The position numbers were made by a program, and so were the translations under genes. A stretch of DNA of 64,000 nt. Source: an uncultured Gammaproteobacteria bacterium (GTDB taxonomy: Bacteria > Patescibacteriota > Microgenomatia > UBA8517). Positions 2,610 to 40,458 of the stretch are shown piece by piece (the first letter of the stretch is position 1; each line of letters starts with the position of its first letter). The stretch is from NCBI GenBank assembly GCA_964429215.1, contig CAYSAY010000002.1, positions 33,812-97,811 on the forward strand. The letters run 5' to 3'. A model generated the notes under the pieces. That model was not told the origin of the DNA. It saw nothing but the letters and a program-made list of their open reading frames with translations, and made no database searches.

Positions 2610-4160
2610 TCAATCCTTTTCAAACTTTTGCAAATATTTTCTTAAAAACTCCCTCCAGTCATGATGGTCATCGTCATCGTGACCTTCATCATGCTTATTT
2701 TTGTTACCTATATTTATTTTGTAAGTGTCAGTATCTCTTCCGCTTAATTTACCTGAATACTTTTCTGTTTCCACTTTTCCATTTAAGTCATATATAAAAC
2801 TATCCAAATTATACTTTCCTTTAAGTCCTGTTATTTTTAATTTATATTTACCATTTGCAGGTTTTTCAAAAAGTAATATTTTTACAGGATTGCCTGATTT
2901 GATAGAAGGGTTTGTTAAGCTATTAATTGGTTCTTCAACAAAAACTTGAGTTGGGGCAAGTAAACCGTTTGATGTATATAATTCTAAGTTAAACTGCGGT
3001 TCAATTACAAACATCATATATGAAAGATCAGAGTGGGTTGGTGTAAAAGTATTTATGGCAAGAAAATTATTTCCATATGGAGTTAAGTCATTACGGCTTG
3101 CATATCCAGGGTCATTAATAGTATAAGTTTCGCCAATTTTTCCTGTGGCTACAATAAAATGTCCAGGCTCTTTTAAAATTGCTGGTCTATTATTATTTAA
3201 TTCATTGTCAAGATTTGCAGTTGTTGCATCTAGCCTTTTATATTCAAGTGTTGGAGTTAATAAAGTATCGTGTTGCTTTGTATACCTACTTACTGCAAGC
3301 TAATTAATAAGTCCATTTCTAATGTATCCATCCTTTTGGTTTTTAAGCCAAGTGTTAAGTGTATCGGGCATAACGTTGTGTCCGTGGTATCTCAAAACCA
3401 TAACAGCGGAAGTTAGAGCGCAACCAAATTCATGAATAGTGTTATTAGTAAACCCATATATTTTATTTTTCCACGGTTCACTATATTGTTTTAAACTCGG
3501 AACAGTTAAAAATGGACTAGCTGATGGTATTGCAGACGCAGTCGGTGAGGGAGAAGGCGAAGGCGACGGCGATGGACTTGGGGATGAGGAAGGCGAAGGA
3601 CTCGGTGTTGGGCTAGGTGATGCTGTGGGTGTAGGAGTTGGAGTGATTGTGGGTGCTATAGTTGGCGTTGTAGTCGGTGTTGGAATATCTCCTGTTCGTA
3701 TGCAATCTGTCCATGTAGCTTCATCAGGAGTTGTTCCAGGAATTACACCATACATAATTCTAATTGAGTCATAAGTTGGTGGAGTATCAAAATCAAGTCC
3801 ATATGTTCCATTTGGTAAAACGTGGTAAGTTCCTAGTGGAATTTCGTTACTCCAATAATGACCTGTTCCGCTGTTTTGTTTGCATGCAAGTGATCCATTT
3901 CCGTTTTGGTCTGCACAAAACGGATCAGAAAAGTTATTCCACGGTATTCCCAAATCAGGCGAACTGACATTTGTAATTAAAGATTGACCGTTAGCACGTA
4001 AATATTGAACAACTGCTAATTTATCAACATCTGTTGTTATGGCAAAATCAAGTCGATTGCTGTTAATTGTTGCTTCGTAAGTACAAGTGGATGCAAAGGT
4101 CGATGAAGGAAATACTGCATATAAAATGAGTATCAAAATCAATGTAATTTTGTATCTCAT
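2610..4160 (-). pseudogene. secreted C39-like cysteine peptidase with Pro/Ser/Thr linker, interrupted by one in-frame TAG at 3300-3302
   Basis: ORFs 3300..4160 and 2610..3017 are in the same frame. The 94 codons between them (3018-3299) contain no stop; checked codon by codon. Signal peptide MRYKITLILILILYAVF, a (P/S/T)n linker, catalytic Cys in GCALTSAVMVLRY before the TAG and His in GHFIVATG after it. Context NGLIN-TAG-LAV suggests an original TGG (Trp). Confidence 0.6.
3540..3690. repeat. low-complexity GC-rich repeat encoding the (Pro-Ser/Thr)n linker of the peptidase gene
   Basis: ggcgaaggcgacggcgatgg... on the + strand encodes TPTPTPTASPSPTPSPSPSSSPSPSPSPSPSP on the - strand. Confidence 0.5.
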
Positions 4161-8196: not shown

Positions 8197-9078
8197 ATGA
8201 CTCCAAGAAAAAATACCTTAAACGTTTCTGTTTGTGTGACGATATTTAATGAAAGCAAAGAAACAGTTAAAAGTCTTCTTGATGCACTAAATTCTCAAAC
8301 TTTAAAACCAGATGAAATTATTATAATTGATGCAAAAGATTATAATAATTGTTCGCGGTCTAAGGGTAGAAATATTGCAATTGGTAAAGCTAGAAATGAA
8401 ATTATTGCCATTACTGATGCGGGGTGTGTACCACACAAGGATTGGCTGACCCGCCTATGTTCAAAATTTCAAATAGGCGAGGCAGGGAAAAATATAGTGG
8501 TTGCGGGCGGTTATAACATGGTTACTAGGAATAATTTTGAAAAAGCCGAGTCAGTATTTTTAGGAGTTATTACTAAAAATATGGATAAAGATTATATGCC
8601 GTCTGCTAGATCAATGGCTTTTACTAAAAGCATATGGAAAAAAGCAGGAGGATTCCCTGAAAAACTTGGAAATACTGCAGAGGATACATTGTTTAATGTG
8701 GAGTTGGTTAAAGCTGGAGCAAAATTTGTGACTGCTAAAAAAGCAGTTGTTGACTGGTATTTGCCAAAGTCGATTAAAGATTTTGCATTAAAGATATATG
8801 GATATGCAAAAGGGGATGCAGAGTCGAAGATTTGGTGGCATCCTGTTAAAAAGTGGAGAACTCATAATTTAAAAATCATGACAGTTTTTGCGCGATATGT
8901 GTTGGGTATTGGATTGTTTTTTGCGAATAGTTACGTCTTCGTACTATACGCTACTCTCTATACGCTATACGCTGCCAGCAAAGCTGGCCTTTGGGGTATT
9001 CCTTTGCAATTTGTTTCTGATTTTGCAGTCATTGCAGGCTTTTTACGAGGTATACTTAAACTATGCGTAAGAATTTGA
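8197..9078 (+). CDS. glycosyltransferase family 2
   Basis: VSVCVTIFNE...IIIIDA..., DAG motif, C-terminal TM helices. Confidence 0.65.
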   Translation: MTPRKNTLNVSVCVTIFNESKETVKSLLDALNSQTLKPDEIIIIDAKDYNNCSRSKGRNIAIGKARNEIIAITDAGCVPHKDWLTRLCSKFQIGEAGKNIVVAGGYNMVTRNNFEKAESVFLGVITKNMDKDYMPSARSMAFTKSIWKKAGGFPEKLGNTAEDTLFNVELVKAGAKFVTAKKAVVDWYLPKSIKDFALKIYGYAKGDAESKIWWHPVKKWRTHNLKIMTVFARYVLGIGLFFANSYVFVLYATLYTLYAASKAGLWGIPLQFVSDFAVIAGFLRGILKLCVRI

Positions 9079-10265
9079 TTTGGGCTGTTTTTGCAAGGGG
9101 AGTATTTCGTGTACTAACTATTGCAAAGACCTTTATTTTAGCAAGAATTCTTAGCCCTTCTCAGTTTGGCGTATTTGGAATAGCCTTTTTGGTTTTAGGT
9201 TTGCTTGAAATGTTAACTGAAACTGGTGTTAACGTAGTGCTTATTCAACAGGACAAAAAGATTGATGATTATATTAATACTGGATGGGTTGTATCCATAA
9301 TCAGAGGAATTTTAATTTCTTTATTGATTGTCATATTAGTTCCAGTAATTACTTTATTTTTCAATTCTCCAGAATCAAAAAATATTTTATATTTAACAGC
9401 AATAATTCCATTCTTACGAGGGTTTATTAATCCGTCTGTGGTTAAATATCAAAAAGACTTGGAATTTAATAAAGAATTTGCGTTTAGATCTGCAATTATA
9501 TTTGTTGAAGTTTTTGCAACAATAGTTATTGCATCAATTTTAAAGAGTGAAAATTCACTTGTTTTTGGGTTAATTATCTCTGTGTTACTTGAAATTGTTC
9601 TTTCTTTTGTATTTTTAAAGCCAAGACCAAAATTTGAATTTGATTACAAGAAATTGTCTAATATGATTTCTAAAGGTAAGTGGATGACGGGAGCTAAAAT
9701 ATTTGATTATTTATTTACACATGGTGATGACATTGTCGTTGGAAAACTTTTGGGGAGTTTTAGTTTAGGTATTTATCAGCAAGCTTACAAAATATCAAGT
9801 TTACCTATTTACGATATTGCTGAAACATTTCAAAAAGTCACATTTGCGACATACTCTAAATTAATTTCTGAAAAGAAGAAGGTGATTTCTGTTTATATTA
9901 AAACTCTTATAGCAACCTCTGCAGTTATTATTCCATTTGGAATTATGATATACATATTTCCAAATCAAATAGTGTTGCTTCTTTTAGGTGAAAAGTGGTT
10001 AAGTGCCGTACCTGTTTTAAAGGTGCTTGCAGTTTTTGGAATAATAAAAACTTTAGCAAATAGTGTTTTTCCGATACTTTTAGCATATAAAAGACAAGAC
10101 TTGTTAATGATATTAACATTAATAGGAATTATTGGCTTGGGTATCACAATTTACCCATTAACTTTAAAATATGGTTTAGTAGGCGCAGGGATATCTACAA
10201 TTATTGGAAGTTTAGTAATGATCCCACCTGCTTATTATTGGTTGAAAAAAGTTACTCATGAATAG
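9063..10265 (+). CDS. polysaccharide biosynthesis protein / Wzx-type flippase
   Basis: 400 aa, about 12 TM segments, typical Polysacc_synt architecture; overlaps the upstream GT2 end. Confidence 0.65.
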   Translation: MRKNLIWAVFARGVFRVLTIAKTFILARILSPSQFGVFGIAFLVLGLLEMLTETGVNVVLIQQDKKIDDYINTGWVVSIIRGILISLLIVILVPVITLFFNSPESKNILYLTAIIPFLRGFINPSVVKYQKDLEFNKEFAFRSAIIFVEVFATIVIASILKSENSLVFGLIISVLLEIVLSFVFLKPRPKFEFDYKKLSNMISKGKWMTGAKIFDYLFTHGDDIVVGKLLGSFSLGIYQQAYKISSLPIYDIAETFQKVTFATYSKLISEKKKVISVYIKTLIATSAVIIPFGIMIYIFPNQIVLLLLGEKWLSAVPVLKVLAVFGIIKTLANSVFPILLAYKRQDLLMILTLIGIIGLGITIYPLTLKYGLVGAGISTIIGSLVMIPPAYYWLKKVTHE

Positions 10266-13760: not shown

Positions 13761-14606
13761 ATGTATTTTATACCACTTTATATGGATAAATACAAAGCAG
13801 TTTGGGTAAGTCATTCTTCAATTTCAGATTTTTTAGTTTGTCCACGTGCTTATTACCTTCGAAATGTGTATAAAGATCCAAAAACTGGTAATAAAATAAC
13901 TGTAACTTCACCTGCCTTGTCACTTGGCCAGGCTGTTCATGAAGTTGTGGAAAGTCTTTCTGTGTTGCCTGTTGAAGACAGGCTTAAAATATCACTTCTC
14001 AAAAAATTTGATGTTGCCTGGGAGAAAGTATCAGGAAAACTGGGTGGGTTTAAATCAAAAGAGGAGGAAGAGACTTATAAAGAGCGTGGTACAGTAATGC
14101 TTAAAAGAGTAGAAGAACATCCTGGACCTATTTTAAATAAAGCCGTCAAATTGCCTTCTGATTTTATACCTAATTATTATCTCTCTGAGGAAGATGAAAT
14201 AATTCTTTGTGGAAAGATTGACTGGTTGGAATATGTAGAGGCTACTGATTCAGTTCATATTATTGATTTTAAAACTGGTAAAAATGAAGAAGATGGTGAA
14301 TCACTTCAGCTTCCAATTTACTTATTGCTTGCTACAAATTTACAAAGCCGAGCAGTATCAAAGGCATCTTATTGGTATTTGGACAAGTCTGATGATTTGA
14401 TTGAAAAAGAATTACCTAATATCGTTGACAGTAAAGATAAAGTTTTAACTGTTGCTAGACGTATTAAACTTGCAAGGCAACTTAACCATTTTGTTTGTCC
14501 TAAAAATGGTTGTATGAAATGTAGGCCACTTGAAAGAGTTTTAAAAAATGAAGGTGAAAAGGTAGGTACTTCAGATACTAGACAAGATATTTATATTTTG
14601 CCATAA
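13761..14606 (+). CDS. PD-(D/E)XK nuclease, Cas4/RecB-like with Cys cluster
   Basis: GKIDWLE (D) and IIDFKTGK (DxK) core. One N-terminal Cys (VCPRAYY) plus C-terminal CPKNGCMKC, as in Cas4/AddB-type FeS nucleases. Confidence 0.6.
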   Translation: MYFIPLYMDKYKAVWVSHSSISDFLVCPRAYYLRNVYKDPKTGNKITVTSPALSLGQAVHEVVESLSVLPVEDRLKISLLKKFDVAWEKVSGKLGGFKSKEEEETYKERGTVMLKRVEEHPGPILNKAVKLPSDFIPNYYLSEEDEIILCGKIDWLEYVEATDSVHIIDFKTGKNEEDGESLQLPIYLLLATNLQSRAVSKASYWYLDKSDDLIEKELPNIVDSKDKVLTVARRIKLARQLNHFVCPKNGCMKCRPLERVLKNEGEKVGTSDTRQDIYILP

Positions 14607-14610
14607 ATTC

Positions 14611-15114
14611 ATGCAAAAAAAAGTTGTTGTAAACAATATTATGCAAAAAGATTTTGTATACTATTTGACGGAAAAAATTGGTCATAATTTTGATCCAGAT
14701 TTTAAACCAGAATTAACACCACAAGAAATGCTTGCACTCGGAGTTTTTGGTGGTAAATATATGACAGATTGCAAAAATGAATTCCCTGAAGATTAGTATA
14801 AAACTGCTAAATTATGCCATGAAAAACATGATTCAGAATTAAATTTTTTTAAAGTAAATGCTAGTCAGCCACTATCTGTTTGGATTAAAAAAGGATGGAT
14901 AAATGAAGATGATCCAAGAGGTTGGTTTCAGTGGTATTGTAGATATTTTATGGGAAGAAGAACACTTGATGACGAAAGACAAATAAAGAGGTGGAAATCT
15001 TTTAAACGGCATGTATCACAAGTTAAAATAAATTGTAAAAAAGGTGATTTAAGTTGCAGAATTGTACAAAGACAAGCACTACTTCATTGGGCATATGATT
15101 CAAGAGTGATTTAG
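14611..15114 (+). pseudogene. conserved hypothetical protein (GWFQWYCRYFMGRR motif) interrupted by in-frame TAG at 14794-14796
   Basis: The 61 aa ORF continues in the same frame for 105 stop-free codons to TAG at 15112-15114; verified codon by codon. Context FPED-TAG-YKT is compatible with an original Trp codon. Confidence 0.5.
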
Positions 15115-16150: not shown

Positions 16151-16218
16151 ACTATAATCGCAATATAGCAATTCCGATTTTAGAATTTGCTTCTGCTCAC
16201 AAAAAATATAAATAAAAT

Positions 16219-16533
16219 ATGACAATTGAAGATAGGTTACGCGAGATAAGGGGATTAGCTTCACCAAGAAAAATTAATGCGGTTATTCACCCGGTTGAAT
16301 CAGATGCTAACACAATATTCAGTTCTTTACCTGACGATGTAAAAGCAAGATTAGATAGAGGGTCTGGTAAATTAGAAAGAAAAAAAAGATTTCTTAAAAA
16401 TTTGCAATCATTAGTTGAAGGTGGTTTTTCAATATCTCATTTAGTTCAAATGGATGACGAATGTGTAGATAATAAAGGTAGAATTAAAGAAGATAGGCTT
16501 AGAGATATAATCGCTGGCAAACATGACGATTAA
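16219..16533 (+). CDS. hypothetical protein
   Basis: 104 aa, charged, no motif. Confidence 0.35.
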   Translation: MTIEDRLREIRGLASPRKINAVIHPVESDANTIFSSLPDDVKARLDRGSGKLERKKRFLKNLQSLVEGGFSISHLVQMDDECVDNKGRIKEDRLRDIIAGKHDD

Positions 16534-17483
16534 TTTAAATATCTTTTAATTTTTAAATCTTCAAGTAAACTAATTTCAATTTTTAATTTTTCTTTAAAAC
16601 TAAATATTGCTTCATTTTCACCAAATTTATCAAATTCTAATCTTGCCGGGATGTTATCCTTTATCATTTTTGGGAAATCTCCTAATCTATCTCCTGTTAA
16701 AATTAAATGAATTCCTGCATATGCGCCCATTGAAGATAATCTTTTTATTGCATCCTCAATTTCTACACTGTATAGGTTGAAAACTGTACCTATGTAAATA
16801 ATTACAGGAAATTTTTGAGATTCATTTTTATTCAGTATTTCAATTCTTCTATCTATTTCACGAGATAGCCATCTTAGTGCAGATAATGATTTGTCAGTTT
16901 CGTTAATTATTGGAGCAAGAAGATGGGGAATATTATTAAATTTACTAAGATTGTTTGTTGCGTCGTCGATGATTAGTCTGACATCTTCTAAAGTAAACTT
17001 AGATAATAAAAATAATAAATATGTTTTTAGGAATTCATATTTTTTACTGATAATATTACCTGTAACTATTAAATTACCAATTTTACTAAAATCTGTGTTT
17101 AGATACGGTATATCAAGTGGATTGTTTAGAGATTTGACCTCGTCTGGCAAGAAATCAGCAATAATTGGATTATATTTTTTAGTTGGATCAATAAGTTCTT
17201 CTTTTTTCTCAATAATTAACATTTCACTATTCTTTTCCTTAAATTCCTTAAAAGATTTAATTAGTACCTCTCTTGGTCTACTACTACCATCAGAAGGAGT
17301 AAGTACTCCTGTGCTTTGTAATTGATCTATAAGTCTTGCGGCTCTTGCGTATCCGATCGAAAGTCTTCTTTGAAGTAGTGAAGCAGAAGCCCTATCGTAT
17401 TGAATACATGTCTTTACTGCTTCTTCTAATAAATTGTCTGGATCTACTGAAATTCCGGGAACTGATGAATATATATCTATCAT
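16530..17483 (-). CDS. FtsK-like protein with N-terminal gamma (KOPS-binding wHTH) domain and degenerate motor domain (Walker A/B lost)
   Basis: N-terminus DNLLEEAVKTCIQYDRASASLLQRRLSIGYARAARLIDQLQSTGVL matches FtsK gamma. Downstream LEDVRLIID..IPHLLAPI...ALRWLSREIDRR and AGIHLILTGDRLGDFPKMIKDNIPARLEF match the FtsK motor. Walker A is TGNIISKK and the Walker B position reads IIYIGTV instead of DE. Confidence 0.55.
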   Translation of the reverse strand: MIDIYSSVPGISVDPDNLLEEAVKTCIQYDRASASLLQRRLSIGYARAARLIDQLQSTGVLTPSDGSSRPREVLIKSFKEFKEKNSEMLIIEKKEELIDPTKKYNPIIADFLPDEVKSLNNPLDIPYLNTDFSKIGNLIVTGNIISKKYEFLKTYLLFLLSKFTLEDVRLIIDDATNNLSKFNNIPHLLAPIINETDKSLSALRWLSREIDRRIEILNKNESQKFPVIIYIGTVFNLYSVEIEDAIKRLSSMGAYAGIHLILTGDRLGDFPKMIKDNIPARLEFDKFGENEAIFSFKEKLKIEISLLEDLKIKRYLN

Positions 17484-17565
17484 AATTTTAATATAGTCCT
17501 AAAAAAATATATTTGCAAGAGTAGGGGAGTGGAAGGCATAAATTAAATTTGATATACTATAGTAT

Positions 17566-17817
17566 ATGGAAAAAAGAAAATTTGAAGAAGTTGGTTTAAA
17601 TGTTGCTACTAATCATAGAGAGGCTTCTTCTGAGGAAATTCTTGTGGCAATGGCCGTAGCAGGTCGTGCTATTAGCCCTAAAGAATTAGCAGCAATGTCA
17701 GGATATCCACTAACGACCGTAAAAAAGTGTTTAAATATTTTGAAAAGAGAAGCTTTAGTTGAAAAACACAGGGATGGACTGAGATTTTATTATTCACTGA
17801 GAGGAAAGCAAAAATAA
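17566..17817 (+). CDS. small winged-helix DNA-binding protein
   Basis: 83 aa; ISPKELAAMSGYPLTTVKKCLNILKREALVEK..GLRFYY is typical of wHTH. Confidence 0.4.
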   Translation: MEKRKFEEVGLNVATNHREASSEEILVAMAVAGRAISPKELAAMSGYPLTTVKKCLNILKREALVEKHRDGLRFYYSLRGKQK

Positions 17818-17820
17818 TTT

Positions 17821-18123
17821 ATGACTGAAGATCTAAGAATGATAGCGTGTGTACAAGGCAATTTAAATACACAATTGCCAGAAGCAGCTTTTCGCATTTC
17901 ATATGAATCAGGAGGTATACCGATTACTCCGTGTGCTGGATGCCAATTTAAAACTCATTTAGAAAGAATTGCTAAGATTGCAGAAGAAATAGCCAGAGCT
18001 AAAACGATAGGAGTTGCGTTAAAACAACATGAGAAACATGCAGTACTAGTTTTTGAACATAAAGAAAGACTGCATGTTAGATGTACCTGTCGTTGTTGTA
18101 CTGAAGTAGTTAAGGAAGAGTAG
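17821..18123 (+). CDS. Cys-rich hypothetical protein
   Basis: 100 aa; CAGCQFKTH ... RCTCRCCTE clusters suggest metal binding. Confidence 0.35.
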   Translation: MTEDLRMIACVQGNLNTQLPEAAFRISYESGGIPITPCAGCQFKTHLERIAKIAEEIARAKTIGVALKQHEKHAVLVFEHKERLHVRCTCRCCTEVVKEE

Positions 18124-18355
18124 AATTTAAAAAATTTAATCAAATACTGTAAAATACTCCATGGGAATAGAAAGCGAACGAGTTGAATATCAGTTAATTT
18201 AAAACCTGTATATAAAACTACCCCACAAGGGTGGGATTGTAGAAGCTGTATTGATTGAAAAGCCGAAAGTAAATTCAATTTCAATTGAAGAATTACTACT
18301 GAATTAGTTACTTCTGTTTGGAAATAGGTAAGCAAAAGTAAAATTTCATCTAAAT

Positions 18356-18697
18356 ATGGTGATGTACTATAATACCCAAATGCCAGAAATATTAAGATTG
18401 CCAGATTCAGGGCGCACAAATGAATTTTATGCTGATTTTACGTTGAAAGACGATGATGAATTTGTAGTGGTAACAGAAGGTTGGATATTTGCACCACATA
18501 GAGGTAATGAAATGATGGATATAATACAGTCCAAGCTCTCGTTATTAGCTCGTGATAGAAATAAGACCTTCATACATTTATATGAAGCCTCAACTATTGA
18601 AGGTAAAAAATTAGTTCAGCGAAATTCAAGATATAGCTATGTCGGAAGATCACATGCAGGTTATTCAGTTTATAAAGCTGTTTATGAACCAGAGTAA
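18356..18697 (+). CDS. hypothetical protein
   Basis: 113 aa ORF, no motif. Confidence 0.35.
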   Translation: MVMYYNTQMPEILRLPDSGRTNEFYADFTLKDDDEFVVVTEGWIFAPHRGNEMMDIIQSKLSLLARDRNKTFIHLYEASTIEGKKLVQRNSRYSYVGRSHAGYSVYKAVYEPE

Positions 18698-18709
18698 CAT
18701 TTTAGAACT

Positions 18710-18943
18710 ATGACAAACACAATTTTTACAAATAAGGCACTTTCAAAAATGAAAGATGTTGGACTTTCTGAATCCTTAGTGCTTGATGCTTTTAACTCCG
18801 GAATAGTTGAAAAGTGGTCTACTGGAGGTGGGTATAATAGTGTTAAAAAATATAATGGCTACGAAATTGGAGTTGCTTGGCTTCGAGACGAAAAAGGTGC
18901 ATACATAATCACTTCAGTTTGGAAAAGAGATAATAGGAGATAA
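18710..18943 (+). CDS. hypothetical protein
   Basis: 77 aa ORF. Confidence 0.3.
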   Translation: MTNTIFTNKALSKMKDVGLSESLVLDAFNSGIVEKWSTGGGYNSVKKYNGYEIGVAWLRDEKGAYIITSVWKRDNRR

Positions 18944-19003
18944 TCTTATTTGCAATTTATATAGTTGATCTTTCTTCTGTTTTGATCAAAGATCAGAATA
19001 GGT

Positions 19004-19390
19004 ATGAAAATTAGTCGTGACTCGGCAATTCAAATTTTAAAATATTGTGATAAACACAAAAAGTTTAATTTCCCATTCTTTGTAATGTGCAAAGAATATT
19101 CCCCAGAAGATGATGATTTTGTAGAAATTGGACCTGATGAATGGCAAGCAATTGAAGATGATGACACTTATCAAACATTTGAACTGTGGGAAAAACAGCC
19201 TCAATCAGATACAGAGATAATTTTAGATAGATTAAATATCTTAATTAAAAATTACAAAAAGTATTTAAAAAATGAAGCTTCAGATGACGAAAATTCAGAA
19301 TTGTCTGATTTGCATCAGTTCATCTCCGGCAAACTTGATGCATATGTAGAATGTAGAGATATAGTTTTAGAAATTAGTAAAGTTGTATAA
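19004..19390 (+). CDS. acidic hypothetical protein
   Basis: 128 aa, Asp/Glu rich. Confidence 0.35.
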   Translation: MKISRDSAIQILKYCDKHKKFNFPFFVMCKEYSPEDDDFVEIGPDEWQAIEDDDTYQTFELWEKQPQSDTEIILDRLNILIKNYKKYLKNEASDDENSELSDLHQFISGKLDAYVECRDIVLEISKVV

Positions 19391-19400
19391 TAGTTAAAAA

Positions 19401-20168
19401 ATGGATTTAAATTTTGATACAGCCTTGTTAAGTAATTATGTTAGTAATTCTCAAAAAGCAAGAATATTGACTGAAAAATGGACGTTAAATAATATTTATT
19501 GTCCTAGTTGTGGTGACTTTGTTAATGAATATGCAAACAATGCGCCCGTTGCTGATTTTTATTGCTCGAAATGTAATGAAGATTTTGAACTAAAATCGAA
19601 GTCTGGAAAATTTAACGCTTCAATTTCTGCAGGTGCATATTCTGAAATGATTAAAAGAATTAGTTCTAGAGAAAAGCCAAATTTTTTCTTTCTAGAGTAT
19701 GTTGCTAAGTTATTAAATGTGAATGATTTTTTCGTTGTCCCTAAACATTTTATTATCAAAGAAATTATCGAAGAGAGGAAACCTCTAAAAGAAACTGCAA
19801 AAAGAGCAGGTTGGGTAGGCTCAAATATAAAGTTCTCAAAAATACCAAAAGCAGGTCAGATATATTATGTAGAAAAAGGAATAGAAATTCCAAAACCAAT
19901 CGTATTGGAAAAGTGGCAAAAAACTGTATTTTTAAAGAAAGTTGATGATGTTAACGCAAAAGGTTGGATTTTGGACATTATGAATTGTATTGATTCTCTC
20001 AACAAAAAAGATTTTACTTTGCAAAATATATATGCTTTTGAAAACGATTTGTCTGTTATCCATCCTGAAAATAAAAACATAAAGCCTAAAATTAGACAGC
20101 AGTTACAATTCTTAAGAGACAAAGGCTATCTAGAATTTATCGAGGCTGGAAAATATCGACTGAGATAG
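19401..20168 (+). CDS. DpnI-like methylation-dependent restriction endonuclease (PD-(D/E)XK N-domain plus C-terminal winged helix)
   Basis: NSQKARILTEKW, CPSCG...NNAPVADFYCSKCNEDFELKSK, PNFFFLEY, and C-terminal IRQQLQFLRDKGYLEFIEAGKYRL closely resemble my recollection of the DpnI family. Confidence 0.6.
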   Translation: MDLNFDTALLSNYVSNSQKARILTEKWTLNNIYCPSCGDFVNEYANNAPVADFYCSKCNEDFELKSKSGKFNASISAGAYSEMIKRISSREKPNFFFLEYVAKLLNVNDFFVVPKHFIIKEIIEERKPLKETAKRAGWVGSNIKFSKIPKAGQIYYVEKGIEIPKPIVLEKWQKTVFLKKVDDVNAKGWILDIMNCIDSLNKKDFTLQNIYAFENDLSVIHPENKNIKPKIRQQLQFLRDKGYLEFIEAGKYRLR

Positions 20169-20203
20169 TTGACTTTCTTTCAAATTCGATCAATGATCAG
20201 AAT

Positions 20204-20407
20204 ATGGATGAAAAAATCAAAAAATTTCCAAAACATTCTTGTCAATTTTGTGGTTGTGAGCGTAAGTTAGTTGAAACAATTATAGATGATGAGTTTTTTT
20301 GGGATAAAGATGAACAAACATATCAGCCTGATAAGTTTACTGACATTTTTGAACATACTGGCAATAATCGCTGTGTACAGTGTGAAAAAGAATGGTCGGG
20401 TACGTGA
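20204..20407 (+). CDS. small zinc-ribbon protein
   Basis: 67 aa with CQFCGC ... CVQC pairs. Confidence 0.35.
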   Translation: MDEKIKKFPKHSCQFCGCERKLVETIIDDEFFWDKDEQTYQPDKFTDIFEHTGNNRCVQCEKEWSGT

Positions 20408-20441
20408 ATCTTCCGACTAGAAGGGTAATTGATCGCCAGAA

Positions 20442-21061
20442 GTGGTTAGGAATTTAATTTTAAGATATTCAAATGAAGGCGATAATTTGTTAGATCCAAT
20501 GATAGGTGGTGGTACAACTGCTATTGAAGCAAGGATTTTGAATAGGAATATAATAAGTATAGACGTTAATGCAAAAGCTGTTGAGAGAACTATTAAGTGC
20601 CTTCAATTTGATGCCCTAAATTCATCTGTACAAAGTGTGATGGTCGGAGATGCAAGAAACTTAAAAATAGTAAAGGACAAAAGTATTGATTTTGTGTTAA
20701 CTCATCCTCCATATGTAGACATTATAAAATATAGTGATGGCAAATTAGAAAATGATTTGTCTAATATTCATGAGATTGATAAATTCATAGTAGAAATTAC
20801 AAAGTAGCTAAAGAGTTATTTCGTGTACTAAAAAATGGAAAATATTGTGCTATTTTAATAGGCGATACTAGACGAAATAAAATGTATCAACCATTGGCTT
20901 TTAAAGTTATGGATGCATTTTTGAAAGTTGGATTTAAATTAAAAGAAGATATTATTAAAAAACAATTTAATTGTACTGCTACTGGTTTTTGGGTTAAAAA
21001 GTCTAAGGATTTAAATTTTTTGTTAATAATGCATGAACACCTATTTGTATTTCAGAAATAA
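20442..21061 (+). pseudogene. SAM-dependent N6/N4 amino-methyltransferase (DNA MTase-like), disrupted by a -1 frameshift near 20800
   Basis: Frame A: LLDPMIGGGTTAIEA (motif I), IISIDVN, IDFVLTHPPY (motif IV), then TAG at 20805. Frame C from 20801 continues KVAKELFRVLKNGKYCAILIGD...LLIMHEHLFVFQK to TAA at 21059-21061. The shift sits in the run acaaag. Confidence 0.55.
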
Positions 21062-21082
21062 ATTAATTTATAAAATCTTCAG

Positions 21083-21556
21083 GTGTATAATCGAGCCATG
21101 AGGAAAGTGGATGGGAATACTTTAAATGCCAGGATTGGGAGGCATGTTGAAGTGGAGATTGATATTAGAGAGAATTTGGCTTGGAATTTGATGATGCAGG
21201 TGGTTAGATTTTTTGTAGTTCCTGTTAAACTTTTTAATGAATACTTTACAAAATTTAAACTTTCCAAAACTTCAAGATTTTATAATTTAGTTAATTATCC
21301 ATTGTCTGATTATTTATTTAAAAAAACTATTGAAGCAGTAGTTATATTAGGACTATTTAGCATAGGATTATATGCATTTGAATTTGAAGAATTTCAGTTT
21401 ATTGTTGCAATGGTTTTAATTGCTTTAATATTATTTTTGCCGGCATTTTTAAAAATTTTGTTTTTGGCTTTTGTAATGCTTGTTGAGTTGATTGTGAGAA
21501 TTATTAAATCAATCTTTTTTACAGTTAAATCATTGGTTACTGAAAGGACTTATTAA
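21083..21556 (+). CDS. hypothetical membrane protein
   Basis: 157 aa, C-terminal hydrophobic helices; start uncertain. Confidence 0.3.
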   Translation: MYNRAMRKVDGNTLNARIGRHVEVEIDIRENLAWNLMMQVVRFFVVPVKLFNEYFTKFKLSKTSRFYNLVNYPLSDYLFKKTIEAVVILGLFSIGLYAFEFEEFQFIVAMVLIALILFLPAFLKILFLAFVMLVELIVRIIKSIFFTVKSLVTERTY

Positions 21557-21570
21557 ATATAAATTTGAAG

Positions 21571-21622
21571 TTTGTATACATGTTTTAAAAGATGTATACA
21601 AAGTACACCAGTTTGTATACAT
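21571..21622. promoter_or_regulatory. three copies of 11-nt motif TTTGTATACAT (two direct at 21571 and 21612, one inverted at 21592) about 20-21 nt apart, followed by TATATAAT -10-like box
   Basis: Read directly; all three centre on GTATAC. The array lies in the 85 nt upstream of the DUF3800 gene start at 21642. Confidence 0.4.
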
Positions 21623-21641
21623 TAGGGTATATAATTAATAT

Positions 21642-22226
21642 ATGGATAACAACCTGTTATTTATTGATGAATCTGGTGACCATAGCTTAAATAATATTAA
21701 TTCTGACTTTCCAATATTTGCATTATTAGGATTAATAATTGAAGAATCAAGTTATAAAATACTAATTAATGAAGTTAATGACTTTAAAAATAAATATTTT
21801 AAGACAACTAGTGTCGTATTACATAGTAGAGAAATAAGAAAATGCGAAGGCGTGTTTGCAATCCTTTTTGACTTAAAAGTTAAGGAGGAATTTTATAAGG
21901 ATTTAAATTCAATTATTACAAATACAAACTTTATGCTTGTTTCTTCTGCAATACTAACTTTAGCAAAGCGTTATAACGAGCTTTTATATAAAGGTAGTGG
22001 TGTTGTCTCTTCAGGAAGATTTGTAAATAGATATAATCAGGAATTGTTATTTAAACGCAAAAGCCAAAATGATATAGGATTACAATTAGCTGATTTGTGT
22101 GCATACCCAATAGCAAGACATGTGTTGTATCCAGAAGAGCCCTATCCGGCGTTTGAAATAATTAGGAGTAAAATTCGAAACAATCGTGGAAAAGTTGAAG
22201 GTTTTGGAATTAAGATATTTCCTTAA
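21642..22226 (+). CDS. DUF3800 family protein
   Basis: N-terminal LLFIDESGD and C-terminal GLQLADLCAYPIAR are characteristic of DUF3800. Confidence 0.55.
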   Translation: MDNNLLFIDESGDHSLNNINSDFPIFALLGLIIEESSYKILINEVNDFKNKYFKTTSVVLHSREIRKCEGVFAILFDLKVKEEFYKDLNSIITNTNFMLVSSAILTLAKRYNELLYKGSGVVSSGRFVNRYNQELLFKRKSQNDIGLQLADLCAYPIARHVLYPEEPYPAFEIIRSKIRNNRGKVEGFGIKIFP

Positions 22227-22290
22227 AAAAACAAAAAGCCTTCTTTCGAAGACCTTTTGCCGATCGGGGACACCCCGGTCCATTCTTATT
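22227..22290. terminator. bidirectional terminator region between convergent genes
   Basis: A stem in aaaaagccuucuuucgaagaccuuuug and the GC hairpin cggggacaccccg. On the - strand the hairpins are followed by a U-run (ttttgttttttt). Confidence 0.45.
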
Positions 22291-22328
22291 ATATACCACA
22301 TCTGTCAAGTTTAGCAAACTAGATCAAA

Positions 22329-34125: not shown

Positions 34126-34387
34126 GGGGTCGTAGCTCAATTGGTTAGAGCGCTTCCCTGTCGATTTGTGGCAGCTCTTTCTAGCAATATTAAGATGTTA
34201 AATCAGGCTAATTCGGGGAAACCTTTAAAATGGTAATCCCGAGCTAAATCACCGATTAAATCGGTGTAAATGTGTAGAGACTATATACCTGACAACCCTA
34301 GTGGTTGATGAGATAGTCCAAGCTTTAAGGAAACTTAAAGATCGTTGCACGGAAGAGGTTGCGAGTTCGAGTCTCGTCGATCCCGCC
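34126..34387 (+). tRNA. tRNA-Asp (GUC) interrupted by a ~186 nt group I intron (34162-34347) in the anticodon loop
   Basis: Exons: GGGGUCG UA GCUC AAUUGGUUA GAGC G CUUCC CUGU | CAC GGAAG AGGUU GCGAG UUCGAGU CUCGU CGAUCCC G CC. The intron follows U and ends in G. Inside are AAUUCGGGGAAACCU and GUGUAGAGACUAUA, like the J3/4-P4 and P7 elements of small IC3 tRNA introns. A candidate IGS GUGG can pair with exon CUGU. Confidence 0.7.
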
Positions 34388-37797: not shown

Positions 37798-38730
37798 ATG
37801 CAGAATATATATGAAGTTTCTCAAAGTAATAAAATAAAAAGTGGTGTAATTACCACTGCATTCTTTTTGTTTTCAGTTGTTGCTATTTATTTTATTTCTC
37901 AAGCTTTTGGCTATTATAATGGTTATGAAGTTGGTGGATTTGGATACGTTGGCGTTGCTTTAATCGTATCTGGTGTATCTACTTTTGTCAGTTATTATTA
38001 CTCAGATAAAATTGTATTAAGTATATCCGGTGCTAGGGTTGCTAATTCTACAGAAGATAAAATGTTTACTTCTGTTGCCCAGAATTTATGTATTGGTGCA
38101 GGGATACCAATGCCTAAATTGTATGTTATAGAAGATACTGCCCCAAATGCATTTGCAACTGGTAGGGATCCAGACCATGCAGTTATTTGTGTTACAACTG
38201 GTTTATTATCAAAGTTAAATAGAACTGAACTCGAAGGAGTAGTTGCTCATGAGTTAACTCATGTAAAAAATTATGATATTCGATTAATGAGTATTGTCTC
38301 AGTAATGGTTGGATTAATTGCATTATTAGGAGATTGGTTTTTTAGAGCTAGACTATTTGGAGGAGGAAAAAGCAGAGATAATGATAATAACCAATTGGGG
38401 GCGATAATAATGGTTATAGGAATTTTATTTGCGATACTTTCACCAATTATTGCAACTTTAATACAACTGGCCATATCTCGTCGTCGTGAATTTATGGCTG
38501 ATGCTGGATCAGTAGAAATTACCAGACAACCACAAGGGTTAATGTCGGCACTTGCAAAGATTTCTGCTGACACTGAACCATTGGAAGCTGCTAACAAGGC
38601 TACTGCTCATTTATATATTATTAATCCTTTTAAAATGGGAATTAGTGGAAATGTCGGTCGTTTTGCTAATTTATTTAATACGCACCCTGCGATTGCAGAT
38701 AGAATAGCAACACTTCAAAAAATGAGTTAG
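37798..38730 (+). CDS. htpX: M48 family metallopeptidase HtpX homolog
   Basis: HELTHVKNYD (HExxH), TM helices, M48 topology. Confidence 0.7.
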   Translation: MQNIYEVSQSNKIKSGVITTAFFLFSVVAIYFISQAFGYYNGYEVGGFGYVGVALIVSGVSTFVSYYYSDKIVLSISGARVANSTEDKMFTSVAQNLCIGAGIPMPKLYVIEDTAPNAFATGRDPDHAVICVTTGLLSKLNRTELEGVVAHELTHVKNYDIRLMSIVSVMVGLIALLGDWFFRARLFGGGKSRDNDNNQLGAIIMVIGILFAILSPIIATLIQLAISRRREFMADAGSVEITRQPQGLMSALAKISADTEPLEAANKATAHLYIINPFKMGISGNVGRFANLFNTHPAIADRIATLQKMS

Positions 38731-39057
38731 TTGAAGTATGATATCAATATGGCAAAGTTAACAAAAAAGGACGTACTCCATGTCGCAGAACTAAGTAACT
38801 TAACGCTTAGTGATGCTGAAATTAAAAAATTTACTCCACAGCTTGATAAAATAATTGACTTCGTAGCGAAGCTTTCTGAAGTTGATACTGAAGGCGTTGC
38901 TCCAACAAGCCAAACAACTGGGATTACCAACGTTACTCGCGAAGATGTTGTAATAAGTGAAAACGGTTTGAGTCAAGATGAAGCACTTAGTGGAACTGAT
39001 GGACATAATGGTTACTTTAAGGTAAAAGCGATTCTGAAGAATCGTAGTAGTATGTAG
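38731..39057 (+). CDS. gatC: Asp-tRNA(Asn)/Glu-tRNA(Gln) amidotransferase subunit C
   Basis: ~100 aa with the GatC pattern (LSNLTLSDAEIKKFTPQLDKIIDFV...VDTEGVAP), immediately upstream of gatA/gatB. Confidence 0.7.
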   Translation: MKYDINMAKLTKKDVLHVAELSNLTLSDAEIKKFTPQLDKIIDFVAKLSEVDTEGVAPTSQTTGITNVTREDVVISENGLSQDEALSGTDGHNGYFKVKAILKNRSSM

Positions 39058-39072
39058 TATGTAGAAAGTAGT

Positions 39073-40458
39073 ATGCAAACACAAACGCCATTAACAATAA
39101 AAGAGACACAGGACGGATTAAAATCTAAAAAATTTAGTGCAGTGGAACTTGTTGATGCATATTTGGCACAAATTAATAAATATAATAGTGATTACAACGT
39201 TTTTTTGACAGTTACTGAGGAAGAGGCTTATAAAAAAGCAAAGGAGTTAGATAAGGTTGGTTTATATGCTTCCCCGTTGTCAGGAGTTGTCACTTCATAC
39301 AAAGATATATTTTTGACTAAAGGGGTAAGGACCACTGCAGCGTCTAAAATTTTGGATAGCTATATTCCACAGTACTCTGCAACGAGTGTTAAAAAAATCG
39401 ATGAGGCAGGTGGAATTATGATAGGAAAATTAAATTGTGATGCATTTGCACATGGTTCAAGTGGTGAAAATTCTGATTATGGTCCTACTTTAAATCCTTG
39501 GAATAAAGAGTACATTCCAGGTGGATCTTCATCTGGATCAGGAGCAGTCTTGTCTGCGAATATGAGTTTGATTTCAACTGGTACAGATACATGTGGATCA
39601 ATTAGGTTGCCTGCTAATTATGGTTACTCAGTTGCACTTAAACCAACATATGGAGCTGTGTCCCGATACGGTGTTATTGCAATGGCTTCTTCACTTGATA
39701 CTGTTGGTTCGTTAGGAAGATGTGTAGAAGATGTAGAAACAGTATTTAACGTTATTAAAGGTACTGACAATCTTGACGGTAATGTTACTGATCATAAAGC
39801 GACGTTCATTGATCACAAGTTTCGTATTGGAATTCCAAAAGAATTCTTTGTAGGTGGACTTGATAAGGAAATTGACAAAAATATTCAAGAAGCAATAAAT
39901 ATCTATAAAAAAGAGAATGTAGAATTCGTTGAGGTATCCTTGCCATCGACAAAATATGGAATATCTGTCTATTACATAATCCAACCCGCAGAAGTATCAA
40001 GTAACTTGGGAAGATTTGATGGAATTCGATATGGAAATGATAGAAATAGTTTTGGTGAAGAAGCAAAGAGAAGGATAATGCTTGGTAGCTACGTGCTTTC
40101 GGCAGGATATTATGATGCGTATTATGAAAAGGCAATGAAGGTTAGAACTATAATTAAAAATGAAGTTGATGAGGTGTTTACAAGGGTTGATGCCTTGATT
40201 GCACCAGTTGCACCAACACCTCCGTTTAAAATTGGTGAGAAGTCTGATGATCCGCTTGCAATGTATTTAACTGATATCTATGCAGCTACAGCTAATCTTT
40301 GCGGAATACCGTCAATTGCAATTCCTTCTGGTTTTAGTAACAAAAAGTTGCCTTTAGGCTTTCAATTAATGGGACCAAGGTTTGGTGAGGATACACTTTT
40401 TAAGTTAGGGAAAATATACGAAATGTCGACAAATTACAAACCGAAGGTGGCAATCTAA
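39073..40458 (+). CDS. gatA: Glu-tRNA(Gln) amidotransferase subunit A
   Basis: Amidase signature GGSSSGSGA, 461 aa, gatCAB order. Confidence 0.85.
   Translation: MQTQTPLTIKETQDGLKSKKFSAVELVDAYLAQINKYNSDYNVFLTVTEEEAYKKAKELDKVGLYASPLSGVVTSYKDIFLTKGVRTTAASKILDSYIPQYSATSVKKIDEAGGIMIGKLNCDAFAHGSSGENSDYGPTLNPWNKEYIPGGSSSGSGAVLSANMSLISTGTDTCGSIRLPANYGYSVALKPTYGAVSRYGVIAMASSLDTVGSLGRCVEDVETVFNVIKGTDNLDGNVTDHKATFIDHKFRIGIPKEFFVGGLDKEIDKNIQEAINIYKKENVEFVEVSLPSTKYGISVYYIIQPAEVSSNLGRFDGIRYGNDRNSFGEEAKRRIMLGSYVLSAGYYDAYYEKAMKVRTIIKNEVDEVFTRVDALIAPVAPTPPFKIGEKSDDPLAMYLTDIYAATANLCGIPSIAIPSGFSNKKLPLGFQLMGPRFGEDTLFKLGKIYEMSTNYKPKVAI

Follow-up and report, generated by a model that had tools for sequence, protein, structure and literature searches.

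Does a TAG codon inside an otherwise well-preserved bacterial gene mark a loss of function, or is it read as an amino acid? The question is raised by a 64,000-nucleotide stretch of DNA (the whole stretch analysed, hereafter the window; contig CAYSAY010000002.1, positions 33,812 to 97,811) from a genome of the Patescibacteria (Woesebacteria/Microgenomates-like). The window has about 32% G+C, and its genes are densely packed and lie mainly on the + strand. One of them, a conserved gene of unassigned function with a reading frame for 167 residues, is interrupted after 61 codons by an in-frame amber codon. This TAG is real, it replaces an invariant tryptophan (Trp), and TAG terminates genes in the same DNA; apart from this codon, the gene is intact. 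We think it probable that the TAG is a recent nonsense mutation that became fixed in a clonal population, in a gene that is dispensable.

An amber codon in place of an invariant tryptophan

The gene opens with an ATG at 14611 and runs on the + strand for 61 codons (14611 to 14793), the sole part made by standard translation; the start agrees with the MxKK N-terminus of the homologues. The internal TAG follows at 14794 to 14796 (+), one G-to-A change from TGG, in the protein context NEFPED*YKTAK. That the open reading frame (ORF) at 14611 to 14796 continues in frame past this TAG for 105 stop-free codons had been noted in the initial annotation, and re-reading confirms it: codons 63 to 167 (14797 to 15114, +), which include RGWFQWYCRYFMGRRTLDDERQIKRWKSFKRH and end in a terminal TAG at 15112 to 15114, are intact and would be translated only if the stop were bypassed. 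Joined across the internal TAG, the frame gives a 167-residue product that is a full-length family member. It is not a chance open frame, because the joined product has more than 8000 protein matches in a metagenome protein collection, the best of them with an E value of 5e-101 at 87% identity over 100% of the length. The 120 best homologues listed are single proteins of 165 to 204 residues, 61 having a length of exactly 167, and homologues made up of only the N-terminal or only the C-terminal part, the contrary case named in the initial annotation, were not seen among them. Its suggestion that the PED-TAG-YK context fits Trp is borne out by the alignment of close homologues: all 21 of them have Trp where the window gene has TAG, and the window gene keeps every other invariant residue. 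The column of residue 62 is also at least 90% Trp in a wider alignment, with relatives down to 38% identity.

We propose that the TGG codon of Trp62 became TAG by one G-to-A transition in what would be an accessory gene of this patescibacterium. Standard translation should then stop after 61 residues, with no usable restart likely before Met114. The earliest in-frame start past the stop is the ATG at 14950 (Met114), and the sole restart ORF in the ORF listing (14950 to 15114, 54 residues) omits the NASQP...GWFQWYCRY core; 106 of the 167 residues, most invariant positions among them, lie at or past the internal stop. As in a nonsense pseudogene, the stop replaces a conserved residue and removes essential parts. 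Because no restart lies before Met114 and the protein is predicted to form one compact domain, the gene would be a null allele, a very young pseudogene; its truncated product is probably non-functional, and background read-through would supply the full-length protein in trace amounts at most. Two further genes of the window, both described below, would have been hit as well, that for a C39-like peptidase by the same kind of mutation and that for a DNA methylase by a frameshift. It is very hard to credit that the gene is split, with the 61-residue N-terminal peptide and a separately started C-terminal peptide acting together or alone: the sequence of both halves is conserved, but a start at Met114 leaves out the core just named, none of the 120 best homologues is shorter than 165 residues, and the structural model of the joined product is a single compact domain.

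That model was obtained with AlphaFold2 from a diverse 46-sequence alignment (pLDDT 95.9, pTM 0.90) and places an N-terminal β-hairpin before seven helices; the predicted fold is confident, and it is without a solved relative. Searches of Pfam, NCBIfam, PHROGs, PADLOC and PDB sequences gave no significant match to the family. At a threshold of 50% identity it falls into 2,690 clusters or more; its members come from Patescibacteria and other bacteria, from Woesearchaeota, from the green alga Tetraselmis striata and from one virus, and its reach includes DPANN archaea. Y17, P37, E57, R116, D121, Q124, and R127 are invariant across the diverse family set, and many Trp, Arg, and His positions are almost so; the four cysteines are not retained in distant members. 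Rare fusions join the family to P-loop NTPase or kinase domains, to DUF5872, or to TudS, a 2-thiouracil desulfurase. It would be a loosely founded guess that the protein is an enzyme, or a binding protein, with a nucleotide or a nucleic acid as its target. A large unannotated family of this kind deserves characterization independently of the amber question.

The initial annotation had placed another amber at a plausible Trp position in the window, and this holds as well. The gene for a putative secreted C39-like peptidase (2610 to 4160, − strand, reading from 4160 to 2610; 516 codons if read through) carries a TAG at 3302 to 3300, in the context GLIN*LAVSRY, in place of a conserved Trp. Six syntenic orthologues from Woesebacteria/Microgenomates genomes have Trp at this position, and five of them were recovered again in an all-against-all screen. 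The product contains a Pro/Thr/Ser-rich linker; its Peptidase_C39_2 domain spans residues 219 to 351, across the stop at residue 287, and the catalytic Cys and His regions lie on opposite sides of the stop.

Both ambers recur in public assemblies. The 61-residue ORF ending in TAG is on record in the ENA assemblies ERZ27247837 (on a 241.9-kb contig) and ERZ27247785 and in the Logan assemblies ERR3094302 and ERR3094292; contigs over the amber of the C39-like gene come from ERZ27247837, ERR3094302, and ERR3094292, and a fifth assembly, ERZ27247828, has a contig that overlaps the far end of the window. All public copies compared are 100% identical to the window, over 2 to 22 kb each. The same TAG in several identical assemblies is therefore not an error of one assembly, and the records indicate a clonal population, present in two or more sequencing runs, as the source of the TAGs. 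Among the matches from a collection of 5.8 billion clusters, none is a TGG version of the protein of this strain; the best match is 87% identical. We consider it improbable that a systematic sequencing or damage error produced the A at 14795, or that this base is merely the majority in a mixed population in which a functional TGG allele lies below the consensus. The assemblies apparently stem from one study (their accession numbers are adjacent), and biases may be common to them; against such an artefact stand the same base in two per-run Logan assemblies and, at 100% identity, in ENA assemblies made with another assembler, the lack of a TGG version among the protein matches, the position of the two sites on opposite strands, and the fact that ATTGG is not depleted. 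As a separate observation, window positions 1053 to 64000, compared with contigs L001 to L012 and L107 from the five public assemblies, are 100% identical wherever they overlap, which points to strict clonality of the population from sample to sample. A diverged strain sharing the amber had been suggested by gene-call differences in L011 and L012; it was rejected, the DNA being 100% identical to the window.

TAG as a terminator and the tRNA genes

Stop codons were counted in a simple set of 78 non-overlapping ORFs of the window. TAA ends 51 of them, TAG 15, and TGA 12, and 2 of the 15 TAGs are the internal ones. TAG thus genuinely terminates 13 of about 76 genes (17%), including htpX, gatC, and gatB, the products of which match full-length Pfam families. 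On the + strand, htpX (37798 to 38730), gatC (38731 to 39057), and gatA (39073 to 40458) follow each other in one frame, separated only by TAG codons (and by five further codons before gatA), and efficient suppression would therefore fuse them. The next stop in frame lies a median of 11 codons past the 13 genuine TAGs, by our own count, against 13 past TAA and 9 past TGA; the window gene set gives no sign of selection for back-up stops after TAG. No further ORF of the window is sensibly extended by TAG read-through. Over about 76 genes, with about 19,700 codons in all, in-frame TAG is found twice; 230 Trp codons stay TGG.

A genome-wide reassignment of TAG to a sense codon is not supported, there being two in-frame TAGs only and 13 of about 76 genes that end in TAG. 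Pyrrolysine decoding is implausible, with no pyl-type gene among the Pfam-annotated genes of the window and with an invariant Trp replaced in unrelated proteins. UGA is read as Trp in genetic code 4, and as Gly in code 25, that of the Gracilibacteria and Absconditabacteria. The window resembles such cases in that a stop codon occupies a conserved sense position and the genome is of Patescibacteria type (code 25 occurs in the group); however, in reassigned genomes the codon recurs inside numerous genes and is shunned as a terminator, whereas here TAG stands in frame twice and ends 17% of the genes, and TGA ends 12. In crAss-like phages and some others, TAG has come to encode Gln (code 15; PMC9523058, PMC7886860).

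ARAGORN identified two tRNAs in the window, Thr-CGU and Gly-CCC. The CUA-anticodon suppressor tRNA for which the initial annotation had proposed a genome search is absent from the part covered, the window and about 9 kb of flank (about 73 kb, less than 10% of the genome). The 9 kb past the right end of the window contain no tRNA, and a CUA anticodon occurs in none of 37 tRNAs from 1.55 Mb of loci, mostly from related Patescibacteria genomes. A further tRNA gene, tRNA-Asp(GUC) at 34126 to 34387 (+), was missed by ARAGORN; it is split between anticodon positions 35 and 36 by a 186-nucleotide group I intron (34162 to 34347; Rfam, 88.5 bits), and splicing in silico leaves a clean 76-nucleotide tRNA. 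A hidden suppressor tRNA at about 34.15 kb was accordingly rejected, since the sequence spliced in silico is tRNA-Asp(GUC). No release factor gene is present among the Pfam-annotated genes of the 73-kb stretch.

These data bear on amber suppression, in which a tRNA(CUA) of the strain, of a mobile element, or of a phage inserts Trp, TAG is still the usual terminator, and the interrupted genes are functional. We hold this to be unlikely. Suppression agrees with the finding that both interruptions are TAGs at an invariant Trp, with a downstream half that has not decayed, with an excess of in-frame stops that does not extend to missense changes, and with two metagenome contigs, described below, that also have TAG at Trp62 in an intact gene. 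It is at odds with the lack of a CUA tRNA in about 73 kb, with the share of genes that end in TAG and do so without extra back-up stops, with the htpX-gatC-gatA fusion that read-through would create, with the frameshift in the third disrupted gene, and with two other lineages in which the same TAG goes together with loss of the rest of the gene. The decoding of TAG as Trp that the initial annotation implied is not supported by the same facts, TAG being an ordinary terminator here, no CUA tRNA lying in the 73 kb, and the third gene being frameshifted. We retain suppression as an alternative because the intact downstream sequence also fits continued translation, and because the two hits are of one type and locally in excess. 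Known amber suppressor tRNAs (supE, supF, Su7, and phage-borne ones) would allow TAG-interrupted genes to function, but none was found here in about 73 kb. Su7 of Escherichia coli, an amber suppressor derived from tRNA-Trp, is mostly charged with Gln; tryptophanyl-tRNA synthetase reads the anticodon. In literature searches, no case of a bacterium that decodes TAG as Trp came up, nor any account of amber suppressors in Patescibacteria.

Editing of the message would be another route to the same protein. The A of UAG would be deaminated to inosine in the mRNA and the codon then read as UGG, an explanation to which we give very little credence. Both sites have U-A-G at a conserved Trp and share the context AUUAG, and the sequence downstream is intact, all of which editing would accommodate. 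Amber-to-Trp editing is known in hepatitis delta virus, stop-correcting editing in fungi, and TadA-dependent mRNA editing in E. coli. Bacterial editing by TadA reportedly needs a UACG motif and a hairpin resembling the tRNA anticodon arm; the motif is absent at both sites, and neither forms an anticodon-arm-like hairpin, or any stable hairpin (folds compared with shuffled sequences gave z values of −1.5 to +0.9). The same folds lend no support to an RNA structure that stimulates read-through. We know of no bacterial example of UAG-to-UIG editing, and to our knowledge neither a Trp-inserting amber suppressor nor amber-to-Trp editing has been described for bacteria. It is, overall, doubtful that UAG serves in this strain as both a terminator and an occasional Trp codon, through a suppressor tRNA or through editing. 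If true, UAG as stop and Trp in a bacterium of the Candidate Phyla Radiation would be a new natural decoding state.

Age of the mutation and TAG in other lineages

A nonsense mutation of the kind we favor would have to be young. In the 120 homologues, 79 columns reach a conservation of 95% or more, and the window gene differs at only two of these, by D9N and at W62. The 51 conserved codons past the stop offer about 115 non-synonymous sites without a single change; by our own estimate, neutral divergence since the inactivation would then be no more than about 2.6% (95% upper bound). Judged by these unchanged conserved residues, the mutation is probably recent, at less than about 2 to 3% neutral divergence, and drift or hitch-hiking in a clonal population may have carried it to fixation. 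In comparison with the closest relative (L098), the codon differences number 20 synonymous and 11 non-synonymous in the N-terminal part and 34 and 16, respectively, in the C-terminal part. Relaxed constraint past the stop is not seen, there being no stops and no changes of conserved residues. Such an intact downstream half appears compatible with a pseudogene only if the event was very recent, and it fits continued translation too.

The same codon was sought in JGI metagenomes with a degenerate nucleotide pattern that covered F46...P59 and a TAG after it, and five contigs, representing three other lineages, have TAG there. In L094 and L097 (41% G+C), the gene with TAG at Trp62 is otherwise intact. 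In L093 (9992 to 10246) and L095 (2080 to 2334), TAG at Trp62 is accompanied by loss of the family match past residue 87, and the contigs end about 160 to 190 nucleotides further on. L096 (5594 to 5818) loses the match past residue 76, after TAG at Trp62, and continues with genes for a flavodoxin and an aminoglycoside nucleotidyltransferase. In two of the three other lineages, then, the TAG appears from the sequence to mark a gene under loss. Because the family is very large, three independent TAGs at one Trp codon are not clearly above what random knock-outs would give; a scan of viral contigs returned three TGG copies only, too few for a baseline. As an aside, the ends of L093 and L095 shortly after the break could mean a repeat or an insertion.

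Several observations weigh against a plain nonsense mutation in the window gene. None of the 51 highly conserved columns past the stop has changed, no further stops have arisen there, and the ratio of non-synonymous to synonymous differences from L098 is no higher past the stop than before it. With the codon usage of the window, TGG-to-TAG accounts for 2.4% of single-base nonsense paths under a uniform spectrum, for 9.6% under an AT-biased one, and for 22% if only G:C-to-A:T transitions are allowed; the probability that both stops are TGG-to-TAG is 0.0006 to 0.047 under random nonsense spectra. In-frame stops are also in excess: two clean ones occur in 24.3 kb of comparable window sequence, against about 1 to 3 in 687 kb of related loci (Poisson p about 0.005, our own post hoc estimate). 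Six neighbouring genes have no general excess of conserved-residue changes, such as broad relaxed selection would leave, and a hypermutator is not indicated because the neighbours lack this excess. Finally, the roughly 73 kb seen belong to a genome that is probably near 1 Mb.

The coincidence of two ambers has to be set beside these numbers. The initial annotation had called two Trp-position ambers in one window unusual, and both are real; any two random nonsense events are nevertheless of the same type with a probability of about 0.08 to 0.26 (our own sum over spectra), so that the pair is less odd than it looks. It is less odd also because TGG-to-TAG is one G-to-A transition. A methylation-driven deamination hot spot was considered for the shared sequence ATT[G>A]G, the complement of CCAAT, and rejected; the ratios of observed to expected counts are 1.03 for ATTGG and 0.93 for ATTAG.

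Genes of prokaryotes often contain in-frame stops, and low-level read-through of these may occur (Belinky et al. 2021, PMC7918605; PMC9122581), and "pseudo-pseudogenes" occur in Salmonella (PMC9122581). The window gene is like bacterial nonsense pseudogenes in that a single in-frame stop, made by one transition, lies in an otherwise intact conserved gene, with low read-through possible; it is unlike them in that two TGG-to-TAG stops fall within 12 kb and in that the stop is not shared by any diverged relative. Should the allele be a plain nonsense one, it counsels caution: in AT-rich genomes a fresh knock-out can be expected to appear as an in-frame TAG at a Trp codon, and two such TAGs do not amount to a new genetic code.

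Neighbouring genes and other disruptions

The upstream neighbour (13761 to 14606, +) encodes a nuclease of 281 residues, which the initial annotation had described as PD-(D/E)XK/Cas4-like and which matches PF12705 with an E value of 5.5e-22. It shares with the Cas4/RecB family the PD-(D/E)XK domain and, as in Cas4, an N-terminal Cys and a C-terminal CxxxxCxxC motif. It differs from Cas4 in that its score does not reach the threshold of any Cas4 model applied (35.5 bits for TIGR00372, where 65 are required), in that there is no cas gene among its Pfam-annotated neighbours, and in its syntenic position beside genes for cell-envelope polysaccharides. Upstream, the conserved order is glycosyltransferase, polysaccharide synthase, Wzy, Ig-domain protein, and nuclease.

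The nuclease is conserved across Patescibacteria, and the closest of 80 orthologue loci, in metagenome-assembled genomes of Microgenomates/Woesebacteria, is 86% identical. A two-gene module of the nuclease and the 167-residue gene, as the initial annotation had suspected, is not upheld, since in none of the 80 orthologue loci does the gene lie within 10 kb of the nuclease. In L013 and L014, an alpha/beta hydrolase gene follows about 70 to 90 nucleotides past the nuclease gene, without the 167-residue gene between them. Only a sister lineage, the closest relative (L098/L099; nuclease 87% identical), shares the arrangement, in the order nuclease, 167-residue gene, and hydrolase, and it has TGG at codon 62. 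In eight other lineages the family gene sits among unrelated neighbours, and the nuclease is lacking. The adjacency is thus inherited synteny of one small clade, not a functional pair. The 167-residue gene itself is dispensable in the wider clade, because it is absent beside the nuclease in 80 related genomes, including those with 86% identical nucleases.

Gene disruption in the strain is not limited to TAG, as the N6/N4 DNA methylase gene (20442 to 21061, +) is broken by a frameshift near 20800. Its first part (20442 to 20807) and its second (20804 to 21061) lie in different frames, and the joined product matches PF01555 in two stretches (E value 1.8e-20). In the DNA, one base is apparently missing from a short A run; the public contig L001 ends at 20796. 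The methylase gene adjoins a DpnI-like gene at 19401 to 20168.

The in-frame stops counted above come from an all-against-all tblastn screen of real ORFs; first passes returned mostly antisense or off-frame ORFs, and the matches were then filtered. Those that remain beside the clean stops are gene boundaries, frameshift regions, or off-frame artefacts, and the apparent "TAG at W" in the relatives L024, L029, L033, and L040 was rejected as off-frame. Candidates for other genes split by TAA or TGA were dismissed for the in-frame ORF pairs 4254/5052 and 6650/7190, which are distinct genes by Pfam, as are htpX, gatC, and gatA. The pair 28149/27291 and the small pairs 17566/17821 and 18356/18710 gave no evidence of a split gene, the small ones having no Pfam matches to decide.

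In the neighbouring genes, changes at conserved columns number 0 of 64 in the nuclease, 0 of 93 in Wzy, and 0 of 74 in the Ig-domain protein. The polysaccharide-synthase-like gene (9063 to 10265, +) has 7 departures at 124 conserved columns, the most among its 10 orthologues; the other five neighbours tested have 0 to 1. Downstream, from about 16200 to 22300, lies what looks like a variable, mobile-looking island with an FtsK/SpoIIIE-like gene, a winged helix-turn-helix protein, small ORFs of no known family, the DpnI-like and methylase genes, and a gene for 194 residues at 21642. Among the genes of this island, the FtsK/SpoIIIE-like gene is the only one matched in the related loci compared, being shared with L098.
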